A DNA stretch of 32,000 nt. Origin: Fibrobacter succinogenes subsp. succinogenes S85. Its GTDB lineage: Bacteria > Fibrobacterota > Fibrobacteria > Fibrobacterales > Fibrobacteraceae. Position 1 is the stretch's first letter. Each line of letters opens with the position of its first letter. The notes beneath the pieces were generated by a model. It saw nothing but the letters and a program-made list of their open reading frames with translations, was not told the DNA's origin and made no database searches. Of the stretch, positions 2,976 to 30,062 are shown in pieces. The position numbers and the translations under genes were made by a program. The stretch covers positions 480,001-512,000 of the forward strand of contig NC_017448.1 in the NCBI RefSeq assembly GCF_000146505.1, written 5' to 3'.

Positions 2976-5570
2976 ATGAACAATCCTGAACTTCTTTTGC
3001 CTGTCGGTACGCGCGACATGCTGGAATCTGCCATCAACAACGGGGCGGATGCGGTTTACTATGGTGTGCCCCACTGGAACGCACGCGGTCGAACCGAAGA
3101 TTTTTCATTTGAAGATGTCGAGGAAATGATCCGCTACGCAAGGCTTCGCGGCGTAAAGACGTACCTTGCAATGAACATCCTCATCTTCGAGCGCGAAATT
3201 CAGGAGTTGCCGGAATTTTTGGAACGCTTGATTGCGTTAAAGCCGGACGCGTTCATCATCCAGGACATCGGACTTGCAAGGCTCATCAAAGCGATCAGTC
3301 CGGAACAGGAAATCCACGCAAGTACGCAAATGACGCTTGCGAGTTCCGAAGCCGTGAACTTGGTCAAGGACATCGGATTTTCAAGAGCAGTTTTGGCACG
3401 CGAACTTTCGACTAAGCAAATTGCGCAAATCAAGAGTCTCACCGACCTAGAACTGGAAGTTTTCATTCACGGGGCACTTTGCGTCTCGTACTCGGGCCAG
3501 TGCCTTACCAGCGAAAACTTCGGCGGGCGCTCGGCAAACCGCGGGCAGTGCGCCCAAAGCTGCCGCCTTCCCTACCGCATTTTTGTGGACGGCAAGGAAT
3601 GGAAAGACCCGAAGGCCCGTTACTTGTTCAGCACGCGAGACCTGTGTGCGCTCCCAAAATTGGAAGAACTTCGCGAAATTGGCGTGGAATCGCTCAAGGT
3701 CGAAAGGCGTTTGAAAAGCCCGGAATATGTGGCCGCCGTTTCGCACGCGTATCGCAAGGCATTAGAAATTCTGAGCGAGAAAGGTTATAAAGAAAATGCC
3801 GAGTGTGCGAATGGAAATGCCGCCGAGCTTACCGCGCAGGACTTGGAACCGCTTGAAGTTTTGTTCTCGCGAGGACTCAACACAGGTTGGCTCGATGGAG
3901 TGAACCACCAGGAACTCGTCGATGGATCGTTCTCGAACCATCACGGTGAATTTATCGGAACCGTCGTCCAAGTAGACCGTAACGGCGTGATTGTAGAACT
4001 TGAAGACAAACCTGTTCCATGCACTTTATTGCCGGGCGACGGGATTTTATTTGAGGAATATAGGGCAGAGCCGGAGCCGCGCCAAACGGGAAGTCGACTG
4101 TACAAAGCGACATTCGCCAATCGCGCCGGGAAGTCGCAAGTTCGTCTGGAATTCGGTCGAGAATTCAACTTGCGCAAAGTCTCGTACGGCATGAAGGCGT
4201 ACCGCAACGACTCCCCCGCTCTCGAAAAAGAACTCCACAAGACTTTTACCGACAAGAGTTTCGCCAAGCACATTCCCGTGTGCATGACACTCGAAGGCAA
4301 AATTGGCGAACCGCTCAAACTCACGATTTGCGAAAGCACGAAAGCCGTCGCAGACGAAACACGCACGGTCACCGTCGAAGGCGCCATCCTCGAAGCCTCA
4401 CGCAACGAAGTCGCTCCCGATGCACTCCAAGCCATCGCCAAGAAAGAACTTTCCGGATTAAGCGCGACCGCTTACATTCTCGACAAGCTTGAAATTAAGT
4501 TACCTGCAAACGCATTCCTCCCCGGCAAAGTTTTGCGCACACTCCGCCAAGAAGCCGTACAAGCATTTGACGAAAAGCGCCTGCAGTGGAAAGAGCTTGC
4601 ACCATCTGCAGACAACGGTCGCGCATTCCTACATAGCGTCGCAAGCAGCACAAGCATGGTCGCGGGCAACCCCGACAAAGCAACAGGCACGCCCAAGAAC
4701 CGCCGCACAATTACCGTCCTCGTCCGCCGTCCCGAACAAATCGACGCTTTGCAAGGTCTCGACATCGACAAAGTCATCATGGATTTTGACTGGGGCGTGA
4801 AATACGACGAACCGCTCGAACGCATCCACAAGCTCGGCTTTGAAGCAGGCATCGCCACGCTCCGTATCCACAAGCCCAGCGAAAACCATTACATCAAACA
4901 AATTCTCACGCTCATGCCAGAATTTGCATTGGTGCGTAACCTCGGTTCGCTTGCGCTCCTCAAGGATTCCGGAATTCCGATGGTCGGCGACTACAGCCTG
5001 AACGCCACCAACAGCGCAAGCTACGATTGGCTCTTGGCTCAAGGCCTTGAAAAATTGCACCCGTCGTGGGATCTCAACAGCACTCAGCTCTTTGACTTGC
5101 TCAAGAACATAGACGGAAGCAAGCTCGAACTTGCGCTGCACCAATACATGCCAGCGTTCCACTCGGAATACTGCGCCTTCGCGCGCGCCCTCACAACAGG
5201 CCGCCGCTTCCCCGAATGCAAAAAGATTTGCACACAACATAAAGTCGAAATTCTCGACCATAAAGGCGAACGCCACTTCTTGCAATCCGATGCCGAATGC
5301 CGCAACACGCTCTTTGTCGGCAAGCCGCAATCCGCCCTCAAGCTATTGCCAAGGCTCATCGCACAAAATGTGAGCAGCTACCGCCTAGAACTCTTGGACG
5401 AAGAACCCGAATCTGTCCGCCGCAAAATCGACATTTACACGCAAGCCATCCGCGGCAAGCTCGACATCGACACCGCCATTTCAAAGGCCGGCGTCGAAGA
5501 AAAGTACGGACTCTCCGAAGGCCAGCTGTTCAATCAAAGTGTCTGGCAAGACCGAAAGAAAGGTTGTTAA
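2976..5570 (+). CDS. peptidase U32 family protein, long two-module form (864 aa) with Cys clusters
   Basis: U32 signature EVFIHGALCVSYSGQCLTS plus SANRGQCAQSCR. N-terminus LLLPVGTRDMLESAINNGADAVYYG is typical of U32. A second Cys-rich block lies in the C-terminal half (SEYCAF...FPECKKICTQH...AECRN). Confidence 0.9.
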   Translation: MNNPELLLPVGTRDMLESAINNGADAVYYGVPHWNARGRTEDFSFEDVEEMIRYARLRGVKTYLAMNILIFEREIQELPEFLERLIALKPDAFIIQDIGLARLIKAISPEQEIHASTQMTLASSEAVNLVKDIGFSRAVLARELSTKQIAQIKSLTDLELEVFIHGALCVSYSGQCLTSENFGGRSANRGQCAQSCRLPYRIFVDGKEWKDPKARYLFSTRDLCALPKLEELREIGVESLKVERRLKSPEYVAAVSHAYRKALEILSEKGYKENAECANGNAAELTAQDLEPLEVLFSRGLNTGWLDGVNHQELVDGSFSNHHGEFIGTVVQVDRNGVIVELEDKPVPCTLLPGDGILFEEYRAEPEPRQTGSRLYKATFANRAGKSQVRLEFGREFNLRKVSYGMKAYRNDSPALEKELHKTFTDKSFAKHIPVCMTLEGKIGEPLKLTICESTKAVADETRTVTVEGAILEASRNEVAPDALQAIAKKELSGLSATAYILDKLEIKLPANAFLPGKVLRTLRQEAVQAFDEKRLQWKELAPSADNGRAFLHSVASSTSMVAGNPDKATGTPKNRRTITVLVRRPEQIDALQGLDIDKVIMDFDWGVKYDEPLERIHKLGFEAGIATLRIHKPSENHYIKQILTLMPEFALVRNLGSLALLKDSGIPMVGDYSLNATNSASYDWLLAQGLEKLHPSWDLNSTQLFDLLKNIDGSKLELALHQYMPAFHSEYCAFARALTTGRRFPECKKICTQHKVEILDHKGERHFLQSDAECRNTLFVGKPQSALKLLPRLIAQNVSSYRLELLDEEPESVRRKIDIYTQAIRGKLDIDTAISKAGVEEKYGLSEGQLFNQSVWQDRKKGC

Positions 5571-5572
5571 AA

Positions 5573-5917
5573 CTATTTAAAAGAACAAACAACCGTAAAC
5601 GCCACAACTAGCGTAAAGAAAACTACGGCAACTGTATTAAGCACTTTAACAACGATTGCGTTATAATGCATTTGTCGCCATTCAACTTCCGAGTTCGGAG
5701 TGTTTCGTTTATTCCAAAACATCCTGATTAATTCAATTACAAAAACAGCGACGAGCAAGTACAGCATTGGAACCGCAAGAGGCAAATAAAGCCATAGTGC
5801 GGCTTCTGCATACCCAAATTTAAAGGTGACTCCAATAGCAATCGCTACAACCGCAAACAGCAAGTATGCAATAAAAAATACGAGAACTCGAAGAGTAAAC
5901 GGGAAGTTTTTCTTCAT
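5573..5917 (-). CDS. small integral membrane protein (about 4 TM), last gene of the TonB2-type operon
   Basis: The hydrophobic 114 aa product has its ATG (5915-5917) directly abutting the TAA of the TPR gene (5918-5920). Confidence 0.6.
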   Translation of the reverse strand: MKKNFPFTLRVLVFFIAYLLFAVVAIAIGVTFKFGYAEAALWLYLPLAVPMLYLLVAVFVIELIRMFWNKRNTPNSEVEWRQMHYNAIVVKVLNTVAVVFFTLVVAFTVVCSFK

Positions 5918-6961
5918 TTATTTCTTGTCGCGGATGCGGGCGTAGAGGGTTTCAGCTTTTTCGGTGTCGCCGGCGTTCGAGAAGATATGGCCTACGTTTT
6001 CGGCACCAATGCGGCCCTGAGAATTACCGGCACGCCAAGCCTTCATGTAACATTCAAACGCTTCGTCGTAACGCTTTTGCGTAAAGTAAATTTGCCCTAA
6101 ATCAAGGTTCAAATCGGCGATGCCTTTCTTGTGGCGGAGTCCTTCTTCCAGCGTGAAAATAGCCATCCACGGGGATTCATTCTTGACATACATCTGCGCA
6201 AGATAACGGCGAGCGGAAACGTTTTCAGGGTCCATCATCACGCCGTTTTCCATTTCATTGAGAGCGAGCCGCGTAGAATCCATGCTGCGGTAGTAATACG
6301 AGAGCGTGTAATGTACGTCGGCGCCAGCAGTCGCTGTCATCTGGAGCGCATTCTTGAGCGTCTTCACCGCATATTCGTAATCGCCAAGCTTTTCATAGAC
6401 TTCGGCAAGACCATACCAAGCGTCCATGCGGTCCGGGTTTAGCGCCAGCGCACGTTCAAAATGCTTTTGCGCAAGCGTCCAATCGCTGCCCTTCATATAA
6501 CATTCAGCAAGGGCGAAATGAATGTGATCCGTTTCCGTCCCGAGTTCAATCGCACGGTTGTAGGCGACAATCGCATCGCTCGGAGATTCGGCGAGGTAGT
6601 ACAAATCGCCAAGAAGCATCCAAGCCTTCACAAAATCCGGAAGGAGTTCAACAGTGCGCTTGTAAGCAACCATCGCGACTTCTTTTTTGCCGAGCTGCAC
6701 AAGGGCGTTGCCCAAGTTGAACCACGCAAACGGCTCGTAACGGCCATCGTCAATCGCGGCACGGTAATACTTCACCGATTCCTTGTAACGCCCCTGGTCG
6801 TAAAGCTCGTTCGCCTTGAAGAAGAAATCATCCGCAGCATGCAGCGGCAGCGCAAGAAGGAATACTAAGACGAGAGACGAGAGACGAGAGACGAGAGATT
6901 TTTCTTTCGTCTTTCGTCTGTAGGAGCAAAGCTCCGTTCTATTGTCTAACCTACTTAACAA
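5918..6961 (-). CDS. tetratricopeptide (TPR) repeat protein with signal peptide (TtpD-like position in the TonB2 cluster)
   Basis: Multiple 34-aa TPR units (e.g. YDQGRYKESVKYYRAAIDD, AWFNLGNALVQLGKKEVAMVAYKRTVEL). The signal-peptide-like SLVLVFLLALPLHA|AD is reachable only from the TTG at 6961, the only ATG/GTG/TTG upstream of it in frame. Confidence 0.8.
   Translation of the reverse strand: MLSRLDNRTELCSYRRKTKEKSLVSRLSSLVLVFLLALPLHAADDFFFKANELYDQGRYKESVKYYRAAIDDGRYEPFAWFNLGNALVQLGKKEVAMVAYKRTVELLPDFVKAWMLLGDLYYLAESPSDAIVAYNRAIELGTETDHIHFALAECYMKGSDWTLAQKHFERALALNPDRMDAWYGLAEVYEKLGDYEYAVKTLKNALQMTATAGADVHYTLSYYYRSMDSTRLALNEMENGVMMDPENVSARRYLAQMYVKNESPWMAIFTLEEGLRHKKGIADLNLDLGQIYFTQKRYDEAFECYMKAWRAGNSQGRIGAENVGHIFSNAGDTEKAETLYARIRDKK
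6866..6949 (-). repeat. heptamer-palindromic element, copy A (TAGAC box, GGAGC-TTT-GCTCC hairpin, CAGACGAAAGACGAAAGA, then (TCTCTCG)x4)
   Basis: Read directly on the minus strand as TAGACAATAGAACGGAGCTTTGCTCCTACAGACGAAAGACGAAAGAAAAATCTCTCGTCTCTCGTCTCTCGTCTCTCGTCTTAG. It lies inside the 5' end of the TPR ORF. Its TAG is the tonB stop. Confidence 0.9.
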
Positions 6962-7592
6962 AACGGAACTCCTTTGTAGCTTTTTGTGCTACTGGGAAGC
7001 CGCGTAACTGCGCCGGAGAGAACTTCCACTGGCGAATAGCCTTGAGCGCTTCGATATCAAAGCCATAGCCAGCCGGGTCCTGCGTCAGCACCTGAGCCTG
7101 AGCCACGTCGCCGTTCACATCAATCACAATAAATACTTTCACGTAACCCGAGACGCCCATTTTCTTGGCGCGTTCAGGGAACTTCGGCTGGATTTCGCGC
7201 AACACTTGCGCCTGTTCATCCACTTCGCCAGCCTCGTAAATAACATTTTCCATCGAGCCTGCATCTACGGCAACGCCATCGCCAGCAGCACCGCGAGCAA
7301 GCGACAAATCCATCTGGAAATTCTGACTGCGAGATACACCCATGTGCGCCGAAACCTTGAACGTGTTCGGAGTCGCCACCGTACGGATGACCTTCTGCTT
7401 CACTTCGGGCTTTTTCTCACTCACGAGGACTTCAACTTCGGTCACTTCTTCGAGAACTTTTTCGGACTTCACGCCTTTATCGAAGAACAACACGTTGATG
7501 ACCGGGATCGCAAGGAAGAACACCGCGCCCACGACAAACGAGAGCACAAACGCCACCGGGAATCGGAAATATTTCGCACAAAAGTCAAGCAT
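6951..7592 (-). CDS. tonB: energy transducer TonB
   Basis: N-terminal TM anchor, then a TonB C-terminal domain (GYVKVFIVIDVNGDVAQAQVLTQDPAGYGFDIEALKAIRQWKFSPA). It follows exbB and exbD. Confidence 0.85.
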   Translation of the reverse strand: MLDFCAKYFRFPVAFVLSFVVGAVFFLAIPVINVLFFDKGVKSEKVLEEVTEVEVLVSEKKPEVKQKVIRTVATPNTFKVSAHMGVSRSQNFQMDLSLARGAAGDGVAVDAGSMENVIYEAGEVDEQAQVLREIQPKFPERAKKMGVSGYVKVFIVIDVNGDVAQAQVLTQDPAGYGFDIEALKAIRQWKFSPAQLRGFPVAQKATKEFRFVK

Positions 7593-7603
7593 GAGAGCGA
7601 GAG

Positions 7604-8008
7604 CTACTCCTCCTTATTCGCGGAAATGGAGACTTTTCTCACCTTCGCCAAATTACATTCATCGAGGATATCAACCACGACTCCGTTGGGAGCGTCACGG
7701 TCGCTCACGATAATCACCGGGCGGTCCGGTGCTTCGGCCATCATCTGGCGGAGCACGGTCTGCAAAGTCGAGAGGTTCACCTGCGTCTCGTTGATGTGGA
7801 TGGTCCCCTGACGGGTGACACCAATCAAAATGCTTTCCTTCGCGAGTTCCTTTGCGGTACTCGCCTTCGGCTTCGTCACATCCACGCCAGTTTCTCGCGT
7901 AAACGTCGAAGTCACGATGAAGAAGATCAAAAGGATGAACACCATATCGAGCATCGGAGAGACATCAATGCCTCCACCGCTTCTCGAACGTTTACGGATA
8001 AAACTCAT
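7604..8008 (-). CDS. exbD: biopolymer transport protein ExbD/TolR
   Basis: 134 aa with IDVSPMLDMVFILLIFFIVTSTF (the ExbD TM motif). It overlaps exbB by 4 nt (ATGA). Confidence 0.9.
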   Translation of the reverse strand: MSFIRKRSRSGGGIDVSPMLDMVFILLIFFIVTSTFTRETGVDVTKPKASTAKELAKESILIGVTRQGTIHINETQVNLSTLQTVLRQMMAEAPDRPVIIVSDRDAPNGVVVDILDECNLAKVRKVSISANKEE

Positions 8009-8637
8009 TCAACCTCCTTGGCAAAGCAACGTTCTTCGAACTTGAGCGCTTCGCCCCAGGCAAAATCACCAATAGAATCTACTCGACTTTCGAGATAGTT
8101 ATAAACGAGCATCAACGGGAACGCGACAAGCAAGCCCGCCTGCGTCGTGAGGAGCGCTTCGGAAATGCCATCGGCCAAGAGCACCGGGTTTCCAAAGCCA
8201 AATTGCTTAATCGTCTCGAACGTATGCACCATGCCAGATACCGTTCCCAGAAGTCCGAGGAGCGGAGCAATCGAAGCGCAAGTCACAATCGTCTTGAGCG
8301 ACTTGGAAAGGCTCACGTCCAGTTCGTGACGCGTCGCGAGCATCGCATTGCGTACAGCCACAGGACCATCGTTACGGTACTTCCGCACGTTTTCGACCAA
8401 AGCCAAGAAGTAGCCAAAGCGGCGCTTGCGGAGTTTTGCAAAAGCAGCCTCCTCGCCCACCGTGTCCAAATCCTTGAAGAACTTCGAAGTCGAAGTGCCC
8501 TTCAGCATAAAATAATAGCCGTATCGTTCAAACATCAAGAACCAGCCCAGCCACCCAATCAGGAATAGCGGGAGCAACACCCAGCCGCCGCGCAGCAGGA
8601 TGCTCATGGTCGCTTCGATGACGGAATACTCGTCCAT
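8005..8637 (-). CDS. exbB: MotA/TolQ/ExbB proton-channel protein
   Basis: 210 aa with three TM segments and the conserved block IAPLLGLLGTVSGMVHTF...LLADGISEALLTTQAGLLVAFP. Confidence 0.9.
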   Translation of the reverse strand: MDEYSVIEATMSILLRGGWVLLPLFLIGWLGWFLMFERYGYYFMLKGTSTSKFFKDLDTVGEEAAFAKLRKRRFGYFLALVENVRKYRNDGPVAVRNAMLATRHELDVSLSKSLKTIVTCASIAPLLGLLGTVSGMVHTFETIKQFGFGNPVLLADGISEALLTTQAGLLVAFPLMLVYNYLESRVDSIGDFAWGEALKFEERCFAKEVE

Positions 8638-10205
8638 TACTTTTCCTTAATCCAGATAGCGTTGAGGACGGCAAGGCCCGTCTTTTCCATACGGGTACGG
8701 ACAGAATCCGAGATGTTCACGAGGAGCGTGTGCAAGAGCTGGAGCGGGATAGCCACGATAAGGCCAGCTTCCGTCGTCACAAGGGCAATGGAAATACCGC
8801 CTGCCAAAAGTTTCGGGTCGCTCGTGCCGTGCATGGTGATGACATTGAAAAGTTCAATCATACCCATAACGGTACCCAAAAGACCGAGGAGCGGTGCAGT
8901 CGAGGCAAACACGGAAATCCAGCTGAGGCCCATTTCAAGCTTCGGCACTTCGCCAGCGAACAGGACTTCGAGAGACTTTTCGGCGCTGGCACGGTCCTTG
9001 AAATTCTTGCCAAGCACGGAGCGCAACACCTTGCCCACTTCACCATGAGCACTTTGGGATTCAGCCGTTGCAAGACGGAGGTCGCGATTTGCGAGAGCCT
9101 TTACCGCATTGCGTGCACCACGGCCACCAAAACCAAGCACGAGGAGCCAAACAAGGCGCACGAGGAAGATGATAAGGCCGAGGATAAAGAGCGTTGCAAT
9201 CGGGTACATCAGAATGCCACCGTTGTGGAAAAATTCAGCAAAGTCTTCTTTCCACGTGGTTTCCTGGTGGTTTGCAAGTTCACTCGAAAGTTCGGTACTG
9301 AGGAGGACATCGACCGGCACCATCACGAAAGCGGAATCGTTAGCGCCAGCAAAAGCCTTTGCCACATCCTTGCGCGTTTCGGGAGAGAGATTTTCTTGCC
9401 AGCTATAGACGCGCTTCTTTTCGCCTGCCACCGGGAGCATCAAAGCCGACGGATGGAAGCCGTTGATGTCTGTGACCTTCGCCATCTGCATAGCAAAGAG
9501 GCCGCCCAAGCGCATGCGGTCGCCTTCGGCAACCGAGCTACCGAACATGAGGTCCGCCTTTTCGGTGCGGACTTCACGCGTAAACTTCATTTCTTTCTTG
9601 GCAACGTCGAGCATCGCGCGGGCAATGCGGAGCGGGTCATCACGGTAGAGCCCCATCTCTTTCTTGACCTTATTCTGCGCTTCGACGCGATCGGCAACCT
9701 TGAACGGCACGCCCTGTTCCTGGAACTTGGCGAGCATTTCCAAGCGTTCCGGACCTGCAGCGAGCGAGAGGTATTCGGCACGTGCCTTTTCAGCCTGGAG
9801 CTTGACCTGTGCCAAGTCTTCGCGAGCCACGCGCACATCTTCGAGCAAGCGGGTACGTTCGGACATCAAGGCATCCACGCGTTCCTTGCCGAGCTGATAC
9901 TTTTCATTGAAGAGTTCACGTTCCTTGTTGAACGTTTCGCGGTCCTTCCATCGGGCGGCGACAGCCATGTCGCGCTTGCGGCGGGCTTCTTCGAGATCAG
10001 CCTTAGCGCTGTTGAGTTCGGCGCGTTTCTTGACGGCATCAACAGTCGTGTTCTGCTGAGCATTAGAAGCAGGAGCGAGAAGCAAAACTAAGACGAGAGG
10101 CGAGAGACGAGAGACGAGAGATAAACGCCTCAAAAAACCGCTACTAGAAGACACTCTTTCGTCTTTCGTCTGAAGGGGCGAAGCACCGTTCTTTCGTCTA
10201 AACAT
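8637..10205 (-). CDS. large MotA/TolQ/ExbB-family protein with a ~330 aa N-terminal periplasmic coiled-coil domain (TtpC-like)
   Basis: The C-terminus carries TAPLLGLLGTVMGMIELF...LLAGGISIALVTTEAGLIVAIP. The N-terminus has signal peptide ...LSPLVLVLLLAPASNA|QQ. The ATG at 10205 overlaps the upstream TAA (TAATG). Confidence 0.85.
   Translation of the reverse strand: MFRRKNGASPLQTKDERVSSSSGFLRRLSLVSRLSPLVLVLLLAPASNAQQNTTVDAVKKRAELNSAKADLEEARRKRDMAVAARWKDRETFNKERELFNEKYQLGKERVDALMSERTRLLEDVRVAREDLAQVKLQAEKARAEYLSLAAGPERLEMLAKFQEQGVPFKVADRVEAQNKVKKEMGLYRDDPLRIARAMLDVAKKEMKFTREVRTEKADLMFGSSVAEGDRMRLGGLFAMQMAKVTDINGFHPSALMLPVAGEKKRVYSWQENLSPETRKDVAKAFAGANDSAFVMVPVDVLLSTELSSELANHQETTWKEDFAEFFHNGGILMYPIATLFILGLIIFLVRLVWLLVLGFGGRGARNAVKALANRDLRLATAESQSAHGEVGKVLRSVLGKNFKDRASAEKSLEVLFAGEVPKLEMGLSWISVFASTAPLLGLLGTVMGMIELFNVITMHGTSDPKLLAGGISIALVTTEAGLIVAIPLQLLHTLLVNISDSVRTRMEKTGLAVLNAIWIKEK
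10088..10202 (-). repeat. heptamer-palindromic element, copy B
   Basis: Minus-strand read: TTTAGACGAAAGAACGGTGCTTCGCCCCTTCAGACGAAAGACGAAAGA, a 35-nt spacer, then TCTCTCGTCTCTCGTCTCTCGCCTCTCGTCTTAG. It starts right after the ATG of the TtpC-like gene. Confidence 0.9.
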
Positions 10206-10996
10206 TAGTTAGCCTCCTTCGGAAAAGATACTGGGATAGTCACAAGTCTTGGAGCGGTCTTGCCTTCGGCGACCTTCATCACGTCCTTGAGGACTGTGCG
10301 CATCGTGAGGTCTTCGGAGACGTTCTTCCAGGAGTAGCCGAGACCGTTACGAGTGAGGAACAAAACATCGTTACCGTCATTGCTGACGAAAATCGAGGCG
10401 ACTGCACCGTAGCGCAAATACGTTCCAGCCACGTTGCGAGCGTCCACCTGCAAAAAGCCCTTCCAAACTTCGGTGGTGTAACCCAGGCGGATGCGGTCGT
10501 AAAAGACTTCCATCGTGCGGTTCAAGGCGTCGTCCGTTTCGATTAGGCCCTTGTGCAACATGCTTGCGATTTCCAGGATGTTCTTGACTGCTTCGTCCGT
10601 GCGGTACGGGAAATCCGATTCAAAGAACGGTACGAGAGAATCGATGACCGTCGCAAGAGAATCGGCGTACTTCGTCTTGCGGTTTTCGAAATAGCGGATT
10701 GAGCCATTCGTCTTGGAGCGGGCCGCTGAAATTTTCTTGAGTTCGACCTTGAGCGAATCGATTTCGGCTTTCAAGGACTTGTTCTGGGCCGAGAGGTTCT
10801 GCACCTTTTTGCGACCGACTTCAACGAATTCGGCATGGCGCTTCTTTTCGGCTTCGTGCATAGATTTTTCGCGAGCGGTTTCGGCCTCGACCGTCTTGAT
10901 TTGGCGACGAACGCTTTCTACCGTTTCTTGGGCAACGGCAAAAACGCCAGAAAGCCCCAGACACAACAATACTTTAGGAAGGAATGAAAATTTCAT
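10205..10996 (-). CDS. DUF3450-like periplasmic coiled-coil protein (TtpB-like, first gene of the TonB2-type cluster)
   Basis: Signal peptide MKFSFLPKVLLCLGLSGVFAVAQE, then a coiled coil, then a C-terminal domain (LRYGAVASIFVSNDG...). I chose the start at 10996. The ORF track extends to 11044, and 11002 is also possible. Confidence 0.7.
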   Translation of the reverse strand: MKFSFLPKVLLCLGLSGVFAVAQETVESVRRQIKTVEAETAREKSMHEAEKKRHAEFVEVGRKKVQNLSAQNKSLKAEIDSLKVELKKISAARSKTNGSIRYFENRKTKYADSLATVIDSLVPFFESDFPYRTDEAVKNILEIASMLHKGLIETDDALNRTMEVFYDRIRLGYTTEVWKGFLQVDARNVAGTYLRYGAVASIFVSNDGNDVLFLTRNGLGYSWKNVSEDLTMRTVLKDVMKVAEGKTAPRLVTIPVSFPKEAN

Positions 10997-11060
10997 GTGC
11001 ATAAAATACAAAGAAGTGCGACCAAAATTCACGCACTGATTCAATTTTTATGTAAAAACG

Positions 11061-16535: not shown

Positions 16536-16551
16536 TGGCACGCATTTTGCT
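16536..16551 (+). promoter_or_regulatory. sigma54-type -24/-12 promoter upstream of purF
   Basis: Exact TGGCACG-CATT-TTGCT with GG-N10-GC spacing, about 90 nt upstream of the purF ATG on the same strand. Confidence 0.6.
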
Positions 16552-16639: not shown

Positions 16640-18025
16640 ATGCTCGACGAATTGCACGAAGAATGCGGCGTTATCGGCATTTATAATGGCGACGCCGTTG
16701 TCCGTAATATTACCATGGGCCTTTACGCACTGCAGCACCGCGGTCAAGAAAGTGCCGGTTTTGCAATCAGCGACGGAGACAAGATTCGCGTCCGCAAATC
16801 CATGGGACTAGTTTCAACGTTACTGCGAGAACACAACATTGACGAATTTGACGGTTTCGCCGGCATCGGTCATGTGCGATACAGCACGACAGGTGCAAGC
16901 ACTCTTGCCAACGCACAGCCGATTCTCGTCAGTTGCAAGTGGGGGCAAATTGCAGTCGCCCACAACGGCAACATCACTAACGCCAACGAACTTCGTGCCG
17001 AAATGGAAGCCGATGGCCACATTTTCCAGACCACTTCAGATTCTGAAATCCTTTTACACGAAATAGCACGCACCCAGGCCGATGACCTGGGTGAAGCCAT
17101 AAAAAAAGCCATCACAAAATTTACGGGAAGCTTCTGCCTCGTTTTTATCAGCAAAGATTCCATGTATGTCGCCCGCGATGGTTTCGGTTTCCGCCCGCTC
17201 TCGATTGCCCGCATGGGTAAAGCATGGTGCGTTGCTAGCGAAACCTGCGCATTTGACTTGCTCGGCGCAAACTACGTTCGCGACATCCAGCCCGGTGAAT
17301 TTTTGACCATTACAAAGAACGGGCTCCATTCCGAACGCTTTACGCAAAAAGATCGCCTCGCCCACTGCATTTTTGAATACATCTATTTTAGCAGACCGGA
17401 TTCCAAGATTTTTGAACAAAGTTGCGATAAAATTCGCCGTAAGATGGGCAAGCAGCTCGCCAAGGAATGCCCTGTCGATGCAGACATCGTCATCTCTGTG
17501 CCGGACAGCGCCACAACAGCGGCACTCGGTTACGCACAAGCTAGCGGCATCCGTTTTGAAATAGGCTTACTCCGTAACCACTACGTTGGAAGAACGTTCA
17601 TCGACCCCACGCAAAACGTCCGCGAACAGAAAGTCAAGCTTAAATTCAACCCCATCGTGGGCGTGCTCAAGAACAAGCGCGTTTGCGTCGTCGAAGACTC
17701 CATCGTACGAGGTACAACACTCAAGATTTTATCCAAAATGCTCCGCGATGCAGGCGCACTTGAAGTGCATATCCGTATCGCATCGCCTCCGGTAGCTCAT
17801 CCCTGTTTCTTCGGCATGGACTTCCCGAGTCAAGGCGAACTTGCCGCAAGTTCTATGACGCCTAACGAAATTGCACAAATGCTCGGAGTCGAAAGTCTTG
17901 GCTACCTGAGCGTTGAAGGCATGAAGGAATGTACCGGTGAAGGCGAGAACTACTGCGCCGCATGCTTTGACAACGACTACCCCGATTATATCGGAACCGA
18001 CGCTCAAAAGACACGCTGCGGGTAA
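16640..18025 (+). CDS. purF: amidophosphoribosyltransferase (glutamine PRPP amidotransferase), Fe-S/propeptide type
   Basis: MLDELHEE|CGVIGIY provides the N-terminal nucleophile Cys after a short propeptide. Other motifs are GIGHVRYSTTG, the PRPP loop VCVVEDSIVRGTT, and Cys ligands (CIFEY, CFFGMDFP, CAACFDNDYP). An AAGAGG Shine-Dalgarno lies at 16629-16634. Confidence 0.95.
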   Translation: MLDELHEECGVIGIYNGDAVVRNITMGLYALQHRGQESAGFAISDGDKIRVRKSMGLVSTLLREHNIDEFDGFAGIGHVRYSTTGASTLANAQPILVSCKWGQIAVAHNGNITNANELRAEMEADGHIFQTTSDSEILLHEIARTQADDLGEAIKKAITKFTGSFCLVFISKDSMYVARDGFGFRPLSIARMGKAWCVASETCAFDLLGANYVRDIQPGEFLTITKNGLHSERFTQKDRLAHCIFEYIYFSRPDSKIFEQSCDKIRRKMGKQLAKECPVDADIVISVPDSATTAALGYAQASGIRFEIGLLRNHYVGRTFIDPTQNVREQKVKLKFNPIVGVLKNKRVCVVEDSIVRGTTLKILSKMLRDAGALEVHIRIASPPVAHPCFFGMDFPSQGELAASSMTPNEIAQMLGVESLGYLSVEGMKECTGEGENYCAACFDNDYPDYIGTDAQKTRCG

Positions 18026-26696: not shown

Positions 26697-27617
26697 TTAT
26701 TCGTGAATCACGGCGTCAGCAAGCTTCTGGTTCACAACCTTTACACCGTTCCAAAGGATAGCATCACTAACTTCAGAATTTTCAATCACGCAGTTATCCC
26801 CAACCGACACGTTAGGACCGACCTTTGAATTCTTGATAACCACGTTCTTGCCGATATGGCAAGGCATGATGATTTCGGCTCCATCGACCGGAGACTCGGT
26901 CGTAGCATTGCGATTCAATACATGGGCATTCGTAGCAAGCAATGTTTCGACAAGGCCACAGTCCAGCCACTTTTCAACCGGAGCCGTACGGAACTTGCAA
27001 CCACCCTGAATCATGCGTTCAAGGGCATCCGTCAACTGGAATTCGCCCTTCGTGCGGATGTCGTTCTGCATGAGGTAGTTCAACGCCTCCTTGAGAGCCT
27101 TGACATCCTTGATGTAATAAATGCCAACTATAGCTTCGTCTGAAACGAATTCCTGCGGCTTTTCCACAAGGCGTTCAATATGACCATTCTTATCCGTGAC
27201 TGCGACTCCAAAACGCTTCGGGTCAGCGACCTTGAACGTGTAAAGAATATTCTCGGATGCATTCTTCAAGATGGACAAATCAGCCTCAAAAAGAGTATCG
27301 CCGAGGATAATCAAAAGCGGTTCGTCATCGTTTACATACGGAAGAGCAAGGCTAATAGCTTCGCCCAAGCCCTGCGGATTGGACTGGACCACCGTACGAA
27401 CAGCGCCCCATTCCGGTTTCTGTTTCAAAAAATCATCTACAGCCGAAGCTTTATAACCCGTTATAAAAATCGTCTCAGAAGGATTCAAAAAAAGAGCATC
27501 ATCGACAATCCAGTCTAAGATTGTCTTACCAGCAACAGGAAGCAAACACTTTGGTAGATTTTCCGTGTATGGACGTAGGCGAATGCCATTTCCAGCAACA
27601 GGAAGTACAATTTTCAT
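26697..27617 (-). CDS. sugar-phosphate nucleotidyltransferase with a C-terminal left-handed beta-helix (hexapeptide) domain
   Basis: MKIVLPVAGNGIRLRPYTENLPKCLLPVAGKTILDW (GxGxRL NTP-transferase motif). Hexapeptide repeats lie at the C-terminus (IGKNVVIKNSKVGPNVSVGDNCVIENSEV). Confidence 0.8.
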   Translation of the reverse strand: MKIVLPVAGNGIRLRPYTENLPKCLLPVAGKTILDWIVDDALFLNPSETIFITGYKASAVDDFLKQKPEWGAVRTVVQSNPQGLGEAISLALPYVNDDEPLLIILGDTLFEADLSILKNASENILYTFKVADPKRFGVAVTDKNGHIERLVEKPQEFVSDEAIVGIYYIKDVKALKEALNYLMQNDIRTKGEFQLTDALERMIQGGCKFRTAPVEKWLDCGLVETLLATNAHVLNRNATTESPVDGAEIIMPCHIGKNVVIKNSKVGPNVSVGDNCVIENSEVSDAILWNGVKVVNQKLADAVIHE

Positions 27618-27891
27618 TCAAAAACCCTTTTTTATTGTAGTGTTTTCAAACACCCTTACGTAAGGTGAAAGATAAAAAAATCGTACGAAAAAAACAATTT
27701 TTAATCATTTTTGGAACCTTTTCAACACCATTCTGTTTTCAAATTTCAAGCCATCAGTAAAACCTCGCAAAAGTTTCATTTTTAAACATTCTCTGTAGTA
27801 ACGACATTTTACAGCAAACATACAGTCTCAAAATTAAACATTTCATAAAATACGGCCTAAGTTCTACCCTATAAAATTGGATTTAACAGTT

Positions 27892-27907
27892 TGGCACGAA
27901 AATTGCT
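27892..27907 (+). promoter_or_regulatory. sigma54-type -24/-12 promoter upstream of groES-groEL
   Basis: Exact TGGCACG-AAAA-TTGCT with GG-N10-GC spacing, about 105 nt upstream of the groES ATG on the same strand. I could not find a CIRCE inverted repeat (TTAGCACTC-N9-GAGTGCTAA). Confidence 0.6.
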
Positions 27908-28010
27908 TCACAAGGGACGAAACAAAAATATGGTCCAATTTGGAACAGCTCCAACGTTCAAGTGGACCAAGCCATTTAACTGGGCAAAAGCCCAAAAGAG
28001 GATAAAAATA

Positions 28011-28292
28011 ATGATCAAGCCTTTAGCAGATCGAATCGTTGTCAAGCCGGCAGAAGCCGAACAGAAGACCTCCTCCGGTCTCTTCATTCCGGATAATGCA
28101 AAGGAAAAGCCGATGCAGGGTAAGGTCGTGGCCGTAGGTCCGGGTCGCAAGAACGACAAGGGCGAAGTAGTCGCTATGGAAGTCAAGGTTGGCGACGTGG
28201 TGCTTTACGGCAAGTACAGCGGTACCGAAGTTACCGTTGATGGCGAAAACTTCCTCATCGTTAAGGAATCCGACGTTATCGCTACTCTGTAA
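28011..28292 (+). CDS. groES: co-chaperonin GroES
   Basis: [45 protein letters not shown]... is canonical Cpn10. An AAAGAGGA Shine-Dalgarno precedes the ATG at 28011. The track start at 27891 is an upstream extension. Confidence 0.95.

Positions 28293-30062
<1,770 letters not shown>

Follow-up and report, generated by a model that had tools for sequence, protein, structure and literature searches.

A candidate sigma-54 promoter with conserved upstream palindromes at groESL points to a sigma-54 chaperone regulon in Fibrobacter

Introduction

From which promoter is the chaperonin operon groESL transcribed in Fibrobacter succinogenes subsp. succinogenes S85? The question was raised by a 32,000-nt stretch of its genome (assembly GCF_000146505.1, contig NC_017448.1, positions 480,001 to 512,000, forward strand), here called the window and numbered from its first letter, in which groES stands behind an exact match to the −24/−12 box of sigma-54 promoters. 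An original prediction, made from the letters of this DNA, had proposed that the box takes the place of CIRCE (controlling inverted repeat of chaperone expression) or of a sigma-32-type promoter. Heat-shock control is poorly understood beyond Proteobacteria and Firmicutes, and in the literature we found no published experiment on how protein-folding stress is sensed in the Fibrobacteres-Chlorobi-Bacteroidetes group. From comparative sequence analysis, we argue here that groESL of F. succinogenes is likely transcribed from an enhancer-dependent sigma-54 promoter; the core of the original prediction is supported by the conservation of the box, its roughly 60-fold enrichment and the reported presence of rpoN.

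Conservation and enrichment of the −24/−12 box

The box, TGGCACGAAAATTGCT, occupies positions 27892–27907 on the + strand upstream of groES, where a perfect TGGCACG-N4-TTGCT had indeed been noted. It agrees with all 12 specified bases of TGGCACG-N4-TTGCW, and its GG (27893–27894) and GC (27905–27906) doublets are exactly 10 bp apart. The window contains two exact matches to TGGCACG-N4-TTGCT; shuffled sequences predict 0.24 with up to one mismatch permitted. The groES box lies in an AT-rich spacer (GC 0.29–0.31, vs 0.45–0.52 for the flanking genes) bounded by a minus-strand nucleotidyl transferase gene that ends at 27617. The spacer had been described correctly (393 nt, noted as about 390). groES begins at 28011 rather than at about 28012, and 103 nt separate the end of the box from its ATG, noted as about 105.

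Conservation was assessed with one genome per species, represented by 14 GTDB species representatives; together with the window and 10 metagenome variants, these gave 25 distinct Fibrobacteraceae sequences. All 25 carry a TGGCAY-N5-TTGC box 42–103 nt 5′ of groES, embedded in flanking sequence that has diverged and is otherwise unalignable among these loci. The box is present in every one of the 13 Fibrobacter or Fibrobacteraceae genome loci, and also in locus L014 (CAVKGV010000004.1), which is labelled Alistipes onderdonkii. The GroES and GrpE proteins of L014 group with those of Hallerella and Fibrobacteraceae, and its regulatory module is of the Fibrobacter type; the contig is probably mis-binned, and its GrpE relatives place it in Fibrobacteraceae.

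In 133 kb of Fibrobacteraceae DNA scanned on both strands, 23 strict boxes were found, where composition predicts 0.37 (about 60-fold enrichment). Without exception, they are on the coding strand and immediately precede groES (16), grpE (3), dnaK (3) or purF (1). Conservation in 25 of 25 sequences, together with this enrichment, a single orientation and four gene types, excludes chance, and on these comparative grounds we regard the groES box as functional.

Other promoter types

Alternatives to sigma-54 were sought in 15 Fibrobacteraceae regions upstream of groES. The best match to the CIRCE operator, TTAGCACTC-N9-GAGTGCTAA, has 7 mismatches in 18 positions in the window, and 7–9 mismatches were counted across the 15 regions, while the same type of scan found perfect or near-perfect CIRCE upstream of groES in nine non-Fibrobacter control loci. 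The sigma-32-type pair CTTGAA-N12-17-CCCCAT had no match in the 15 regions. Both absences had been asserted from the window. The scenario that had been named as fatal to the sigma-54 reading, a Bacteroidetes-type −7 element TAnnTTTG overlapping the box, occurs in one of the 15 sequences (L006), and the TTTG just 5′ of the box varies, with TTTGGCA, TTGGCA or ATGGCA in relatives. A sigma-70 consensus scan returned one weak −35/−10-like site, TTCACA-16-TATGGT (27907–27934), which overlaps the 3′ end of the box; relatives do not share its TTCACA hexamer. Since just 42–44 nt separate box and ATG in loci L003 and L013, there is no room for a promoter downstream of the box in these two.

Upstream palindromes as candidate enhancer sites

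A comparison anchored on the box revealed a 16-bp imperfect palindrome, GTTTCA-N4-KAAAC(A), in one or two copies 5′ of the groES box in 15 of 15 Fibrobacteraceae sequences. In the window, the two copies begin 119 and 67 bp 5′ of the box, both on the + strand. The distal candidate site (upstream activating sequence 1, UAS1; GTTTCATTTTTAAACA, 27773–27788) matches the motif exactly and is centred about 111 bp 5′ of the box start; the proximal one (UAS2; GTCTCAAAATTAAACA, 27825–27840) has one mismatch and starts 52 bp past the start of UAS1. In relatives with two copies, the palindromes are 27–62 bp apart. Among 80 genome loci, 11 have the exact motif, always upstream of groES; L014 has one extra copy, downstream of groEL, with TGGCACGTATTTTGCT and next grpE after it.

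Palindrome and box are as close as 11 bp (dnaK) and as far apart as 169 bp (groES of L005 and L008), and this variability favours an enhancer over a promoter-overlapping operator. The GTTTCA-N4-KAAAC palindrome is probably the site of a bacterial enhancer-binding protein (bEBP). The TTAAACATT direct repeats, which had been offered as activator sites, are real and form the 3′ halves of both palindrome copies. A second suggested activator site, TGTA-N12-TACA, is present at 27794–27813 but in none of 14 related upstream regions; unconserved, it was set aside as most likely a chance occurrence.

grpE, dnaK and chaperone genes of other lineages

The 12.6-kb grpE-dnaK-dnaJ loci of Fibrobacter sp. 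UWH9-type genomes (L211–L213) and of Hallerella (L214–L215) were retrieved. Each of the two genera has a palindrome and a box before grpE, and in Fibrobacter dnaK has its own pair as well. At Hallerella dnaK, the box is present and upstream of it there is just a GCTTCAAAATGAAAC-like sequence, and dnaJ has neither palindrome nor box in these loci, whose strict boxes are confined to grpE and dnaK. Because palindrome and box also precede grpE and dnaK, a sigma-54 chaperone regulon defined by this module at groES, grpE and dnaK is well supported by the sequence comparison.

Metagenome contigs were scanned for a palindrome followed after 58–118 nt by a box, which gave at least 120 stretches. Downstream genes included Fibrobacter-type groES (at least 11 loci), groES of other lineages (at least 2), dnaK (at least 3), clpB (at least 4) and a probable hsp20 (at least 1). 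The scan also recovered at least about 21 prpB promoters of the known PrpR/sigma-54 system of Proteobacteria. Many of the remaining matches are probably chance, the collection being large. Palindrome and box stand before dnaK, groES, clpB or a probable hsp20 in contigs of other lineages (L180, L085, L172, L101, L159, L110, L146, L148, L179 and L154), and the module is therefore not restricted to Fibrobacterota. By its DnaK relatives, L180 (dnaK at 8192–10123, minus strand) belongs to Candidatus Goldiibacteriota. About 12 groES loci of Bacteroidales and Cytophagales have sigma-54-like boxes of the form TGGCAC/T-N5-TTGCC/T at −63 to −111, and the GTTTCA-N4-KAAAC palindrome is absent from those Bacteroidota loci.

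We tentatively propose, as a possibility that we hold open rather than favour, that sigma-54 promoters of a full proteostasis regulon (groESL, grpE and dnaK, elsewhere clpB and hsp20) are driven by one dedicated bEBP reading GTTTCA-N4-TGAAAC, and that this holds for Fibrobacterota and Candidatus Goldiibacteriota and probably for other phyla too.

Predicted start site and leader RNA

With C27906 set as position −12, the predicted groES transcription start (+1) lies near 27918. It falls within a conserved GGGnCGAAA block that is found 6–9 nt past the box in most groES leaders and also past the Fibrobacter grpE and dnaK boxes; in the window, this start-site region is GGGACGAAAC (27914–27923, + strand). 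The other exact box of the window, TGGCACGCATTTTGCT (16536–16551), lies directly 5′ of a Fibro-purF RNA (RF02974, 16562–16636, 99 bits), with the purF ATG at 16640. Under the identical rule, +1 at purF would be 16562, the exact 5′ end of the Rfam match, and this coincidence indirectly supports the view that the boxes set the 5′ ends of these transcripts. No GTTTCA palindrome occurs near the purF box. A published Fibro-purF reporter used the 'native promoter' in E. coli, with sigma-54 unmentioned (PMC7668255); a sigma-54 promoter at this position could affect how that reporter is read.

The groES leader predicted in this way is about 93 nt long. In the window, it folds at −24.2 kcal/mol (z = −2.5), and the leaders of the 25 sequences fold better than their dinucleotide shuffles, with a mean z of about −2. 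Pairs were counted from single-sequence folds in preference to a MAFFT alignment, which was not structure-aware. The two hairpins previously noted at 27932–27968 and 27982–27993 both appear in the minimum free energy (MFE) structure, at 27931–27969 and 27981–27994.

Hairpin 1 consists of UGGUCCA...UGGACCA and an inner UUGGA/UCCAA helix and is present in both the MFE and the centroid fold. A stem of at least 4 bp that begins at +12 to +18 is found in 20 of the 25 distinct leaders, with at least seven different fully complementary stems (UGGUCCA, GCCC, GGCCC, GCCGU, GGUUC, CCGC and CCCC), and the hairpin is thus conserved as structure and not as sequence. A conserved linker motif, TTTAAC (27975–27980; TTTAAAC in relatives), separates it from hairpin 2, and a TTTAAAC/TTTAAAT-like motif also stands 5′ of the Shine-Dalgarno sequences of grpE, dnaK and groEL. 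In 16 of 25 leaders, hairpin 2 (UGGGC-AAAA-GCCCA in the MFE fold of the window) is found with its end 3–8 nt ahead of the Shine-Dalgarno; most of these hairpins have a GGGC...GCCC core, and their inner pairs vary. No stable hairpin is predicted in the leaders of L003, L013 and L138, and several others are without hairpin 2.

The Shine-Dalgarno of the window, read from the sequence as GAGGA (27998–28002), begins 3 nt past hairpin 2, lies 8 nt 5′ of the ATG and sits within a conserved purine-rich AAAAGAGG/AAAAAAGGA block. It is outside both stems, and in 21 of 25 leaders it has a probability of at least 0.56 of being unpaired. No Rfam family matches the groES leader. An RNA thermometer of the ROSE or fourU type was rejected, given a Shine-Dalgarno that is mostly unpaired 3–8 nt 3′ of hairpin 2 and stems that are GC-rich. 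The suggestion that the hairpin next to the Shine-Dalgarno adds thermosensing is unlikely because the hairpins leave the ribosome-binding site free; mRNA stabilization or processing appears the better candidate role.

RpoN and the search for an activator

A sigma-54 promoter requires RpoN, and the literature reports it: S85 Fisuc_1239 carries all three RpoN domains (supplement of PMC12316311), and Fibrobacteres genomes were scored RpoN-positive (PMC3372290, Table 1), which gives published support on a point that the original prediction had asked to be checked. No rpoN gene lies in any fetched locus. S85 is also reported to encode a sigma-54-type response regulator, Fisuc_0397 (PMC3079729). The proposed search for an adjacent bEBP gave none, either among the open reading frames (ORFs) of the window (Pfam) or in the fetched Fibrobacter loci (scan for the GAFTGA motif). 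Elsewhere, the only bEBP genes found adjoin prpB, flagellar or uspA-type targets of other phyla or lie at four Bacteroidota groES loci.

These four loci (L030, L050, L062 and L065) have a bEBP gene with a GAFTGA or GSFTGA motif at positions 1 to about 1100, some 2 kb 5′ of groES (3001). Gene order in L050, the one of the four that was examined closely, is bEBP, a small lipoprotein-like ORF, a 264-aa ORF, a small membrane ORF, groES and groEL; its bEBP ends in a helix-turn-helix-like region, and a sigma-54-like box, TGGCATACCTTATGCT, lies at −84. The linked bEBP is a candidate activator of the Bacteroidota circuit.

One Fibrobacter clade consistently shows the order PBP1, XRE, groES, groEL, in which the second gene is a Fibrobacter-specific XRE-family helix-turn-helix gene of 103–125 aa (L003, 2445–2792; L004, 2360–2737; L005, 2325–2672; L009, 2495–2824; L216–L218, 4001–4342). 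We found 21 homologues, and synteny with groES in this clade holds down to 53% protein identity; the product is possibly a clade-specific co-regulator. In the S85 clade, the gene is missing from this position. A second palindrome type, TTTGCAAACA-N2-TGTTTGCA, lies 5′ of the XRE gene in L216 and L217 (about 3969–3990) and 5′ of the grpE palindrome in L211–L213 (about 5844–5866); the window does not have it. A reversed sigma-54-like box separates the palindromes from the forward groES box in L002–L005, L007 and L008 (about 44–120 nt 5′ of the groES box) and in L216 (4425–4445). Its reverse complement reads TGGCAA/G-N5-TTTGCT/G (TGGCAAGGAAATTGCA in L216), and it is missing in the S85 clade. Transcription from such a box would head in the direction opposite to groES and, in some species, would enter the XRE gene in antisense.

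Proposed mechanism and alternative explanations

In the mechanism that we propose, RNA polymerase with sigma-54 (RpoN, Fisuc_1239) would bind the −24/−12 box at 27892–27907 as a closed complex, while dimers of a putative bEBP would occupy both GTTTCA-N4-KAAAC palindromes. The ATPase ring of the bEBP would form, reach the polymerase across the AT-rich DNA and open the promoter. Transcription would start near 27918 and yield a leader of about 93 nt with two conserved stem-loops; the 5′-proximal one would most likely stabilize the mRNA or mark a processing site, and neither would mask the ribosome-binding site. At the groESL, grpE and dnaK promoters, the sigma-54 module would replace sigma-32 and HrcA/CIRCE control. 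By analogy, the inducing signal is presumably heat or unfolded protein.

Several points weigh against this mechanism. The presence of rpoN is taken from two papers, and no bEBP gene accompanies the module in the window or the fetched Fibrobacter loci. At grpE and dnaK, the palindrome is 11–21 bp from the box, nearer than classical enhancer sites. The scan for housekeeping promoters rested on the sigma-70 consensus and not on one specific to Fibrobacter. GroESL and DnaK are, moreover, normally needed constantly, whereas a sigma-54 promoter gives no transcription unless its activator is active; the activator would thus have to be partly constitutive, or a second promoter would have gone unrecognised.

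The latter is the substance of an explanation that we consider unlikely but of appreciable weight, in which a sigma-A promoter gives most groESL transcription and sigma-54 provides a conditional boost. It would accommodate the general essentiality of GroESL and the lack of basal activity of sigma-54 promoters when no activator is present, and the weak −35/−10-like site at 27907–27934 is a point in its favour. The regulated expression of the F. succinogenes purF region from its 'native promoter' in E. coli (PMC7668255) likewise hints at sigma-70-readable signals near such boxes. However, conservation in the groES spacer is limited to the palindromes, the box, the start region and the hairpins, which leaves out the TTCACA hexamer; TAnnTTTG is absent, and the shortest spacers (L003 and L013) have no space for a downstream promoter. 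It is less probable still that the box is a real sigma-54 promoter and the palindromes are bound by another regulator, such as an XRE-family repressor or anti-activator. The XRE gene lies directly 5′ of the palindromes and groES in one clade, and a protein bound 11–21 bp from the box at grpE and dnaK could occlude or touch the polymerase. Against such a regulator, no XRE gene adjoins groES in the window, L001 and L011, yet the palindromes there show full conservation, and the window has no homologue; the 21 homologues are all from Fibrobacter, whereas the module reaches Hallerella and Goldiibacteriota. The palindrome-to-box distance of up to 169 bp and the established need of sigma-54 promoters for an ATPase activator speak for an enhancer as well.

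We give little credence to the leader hairpins as the main temperature sensor, whether as an RNA thermometer or as a riboswitch-like element. Both are conserved, with varied complementary stems in hairpin 1 and a favourable mean z, and hairpin 2 abuts the Shine-Dalgarno. Yet the Shine-Dalgarno is outside the stems and largely unpaired, no Rfam family matches, and three leaders have no stable hairpin and several more lack hairpin 2; at −6 to −15 kcal/mol, the GC-rich stems would stay closed across a physiological change in temperature. That the box is a functionless chance match has next to no probability. Two of 100 window shuffles did give two matches at one mismatch, but conservation in all 25 sequences, 23 boxes against 0.37, a single orientation and four gene types refute it.

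Relation to known systems

In model bacteria, sigma-54 serves stress promoters such as E. coli pspA (with PspF) and ibpB and Myxococcus xanthus lonD (with HsfA/HsfB). The proposed arrangement resembles these in that stress or proteostasis genes rely on sigma-54 together with an ATPase activator; it differs in that groESL and dnaK of E. coli and M. xanthus are under sigma-32 or HrcA, whereas the core chaperones of Fibrobacter themselves appear to bear the sigma-54 promoter. Compared with HrcA-CIRCE, the target operons groESL and dnaK are identical and a palindromic DNA element is again found upstream. The Fibrobacter palindrome differs in sequence (CIRCE fits with at least 7 mismatches in 18), lies at a variable distance 5′ of the promoter and has a sigma-54 box as its partner.

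There is a likeness in layout to the prpBCDE operon of Proteobacteria, where the PrpR/sigma-54 box is preceded at about 60–120 bp by palindromes of the GTTTCA-N4-TGAAAC type. The target genes and phyla are different, and several prpB promoters have a divergent PrpR-type activator gene, while the Fibrobacter chaperone genes have no adjoining PrpR-like gene. The half-site common to both palindromes could stem from a related DNA-binding domain or from convergence.

Chaperone control by sigma-54 is less unusual than the original prediction supposed. In a prediction of sigma-54 promoters that spanned 16 phyla, Carrera-Reyna, Cruz-Flores and Merino (2025; PMC12316311) found GroES, GroEL, GrpE, DnaK, DnaJ and IbpA enriched as predicted targets in Bacteroidota and Planctomycetota; for groES and grpE in Bacteroides thetaiotaomicron, and likewise in Flavobacterium psychrophilum, their source is Sabree et al. 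(2009). As in those predictions, which also include clpB and ibpA, the −24/−12 box in Fibrobacter stands before groES, grpE and dnaK, and Bacteroidota, a sister phylum, belong to the same Fibrobacteres-Chlorobi-Bacteroidetes group. In PMC12316311, Fibrobacterota are undiscussed and listed only for RpoN in a supplementary table, and leader hairpins and a conserved start region are not described; both that work and ours are computational. The Bacteroidota groES loci that we examined differ from those of Fibrobacter, which have the GTTTCA-N4-KAAAC palindrome. Francke et al. (2011) mention neither chaperonins nor Fibrobacter, and our literature search found no experiment on such a circuit, no name for its activator and no description of the palindrome or the leader. 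Sigma-54 chaperone promoters as such were therefore already predicted, and the present comparison would add the candidate enhancer motif, the putative regulon partners and the predicted leader architecture.

Other features of the window

The PurF protein of the window is encoded identically in CP001792.1; this single anchor gives an offset of +33449 between the two numberings, which would put the predicted groES start near CP001792.1 nt 61367. The genes downstream of the promoter are ORFs on the + strand. groES (28011–28292, 93 aa) encodes a protein with 98% identity to GroES of an F. succinogenes metagenome-assembled genome, and the translation of groEL (28428–30062, 544 aa) is typical of chaperonin-60; in the Hallerella loci L214 and L215, the gene after groES, orthologous to groEL, has the Cpn60_TCP1 family. 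The 135-nt spacer between the two genes (28293–28427) contains nested inverted repeats, AGACGAAAGA and TCTTTCGTCT, and folds at −39.9 kcal/mol (z = −6.5). In relatives, this spacer is 32–36 nt long or has 100–160 nt of differing species-specific repeats. It looks like an insertion similar to repetitive extragenic palindromic (REP) elements and could shift the groES:groEL ratio. An unrelated minus-strand cluster at 5918–11044 encodes DUF3450, long and short MotA/ExbB-family, ExbD, TonB and TPR proteins.

Implications

To place core chaperones that are normally essential behind an activator-dependent promoter is counter-intuitive, and the activator implied by this would be one that senses proteotoxic stress. 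With the conserved palindrome as bait, such an activator could be found. The palindrome also provides a search pattern for the limits of the regulon, both in Fibrobacter, which is important in the rumen as a degrader of cellulose, and in candidate phyla for which metagenomes are the only source. If a dedicated bEBP does drive the proteostasis genes of these bacteria, it would represent a distinct, uncharacterised mode of heat-shock control beside sigma-32, HrcA/CIRCE, HspR and CtsR, and sigma-54 would be effectively essential in them.

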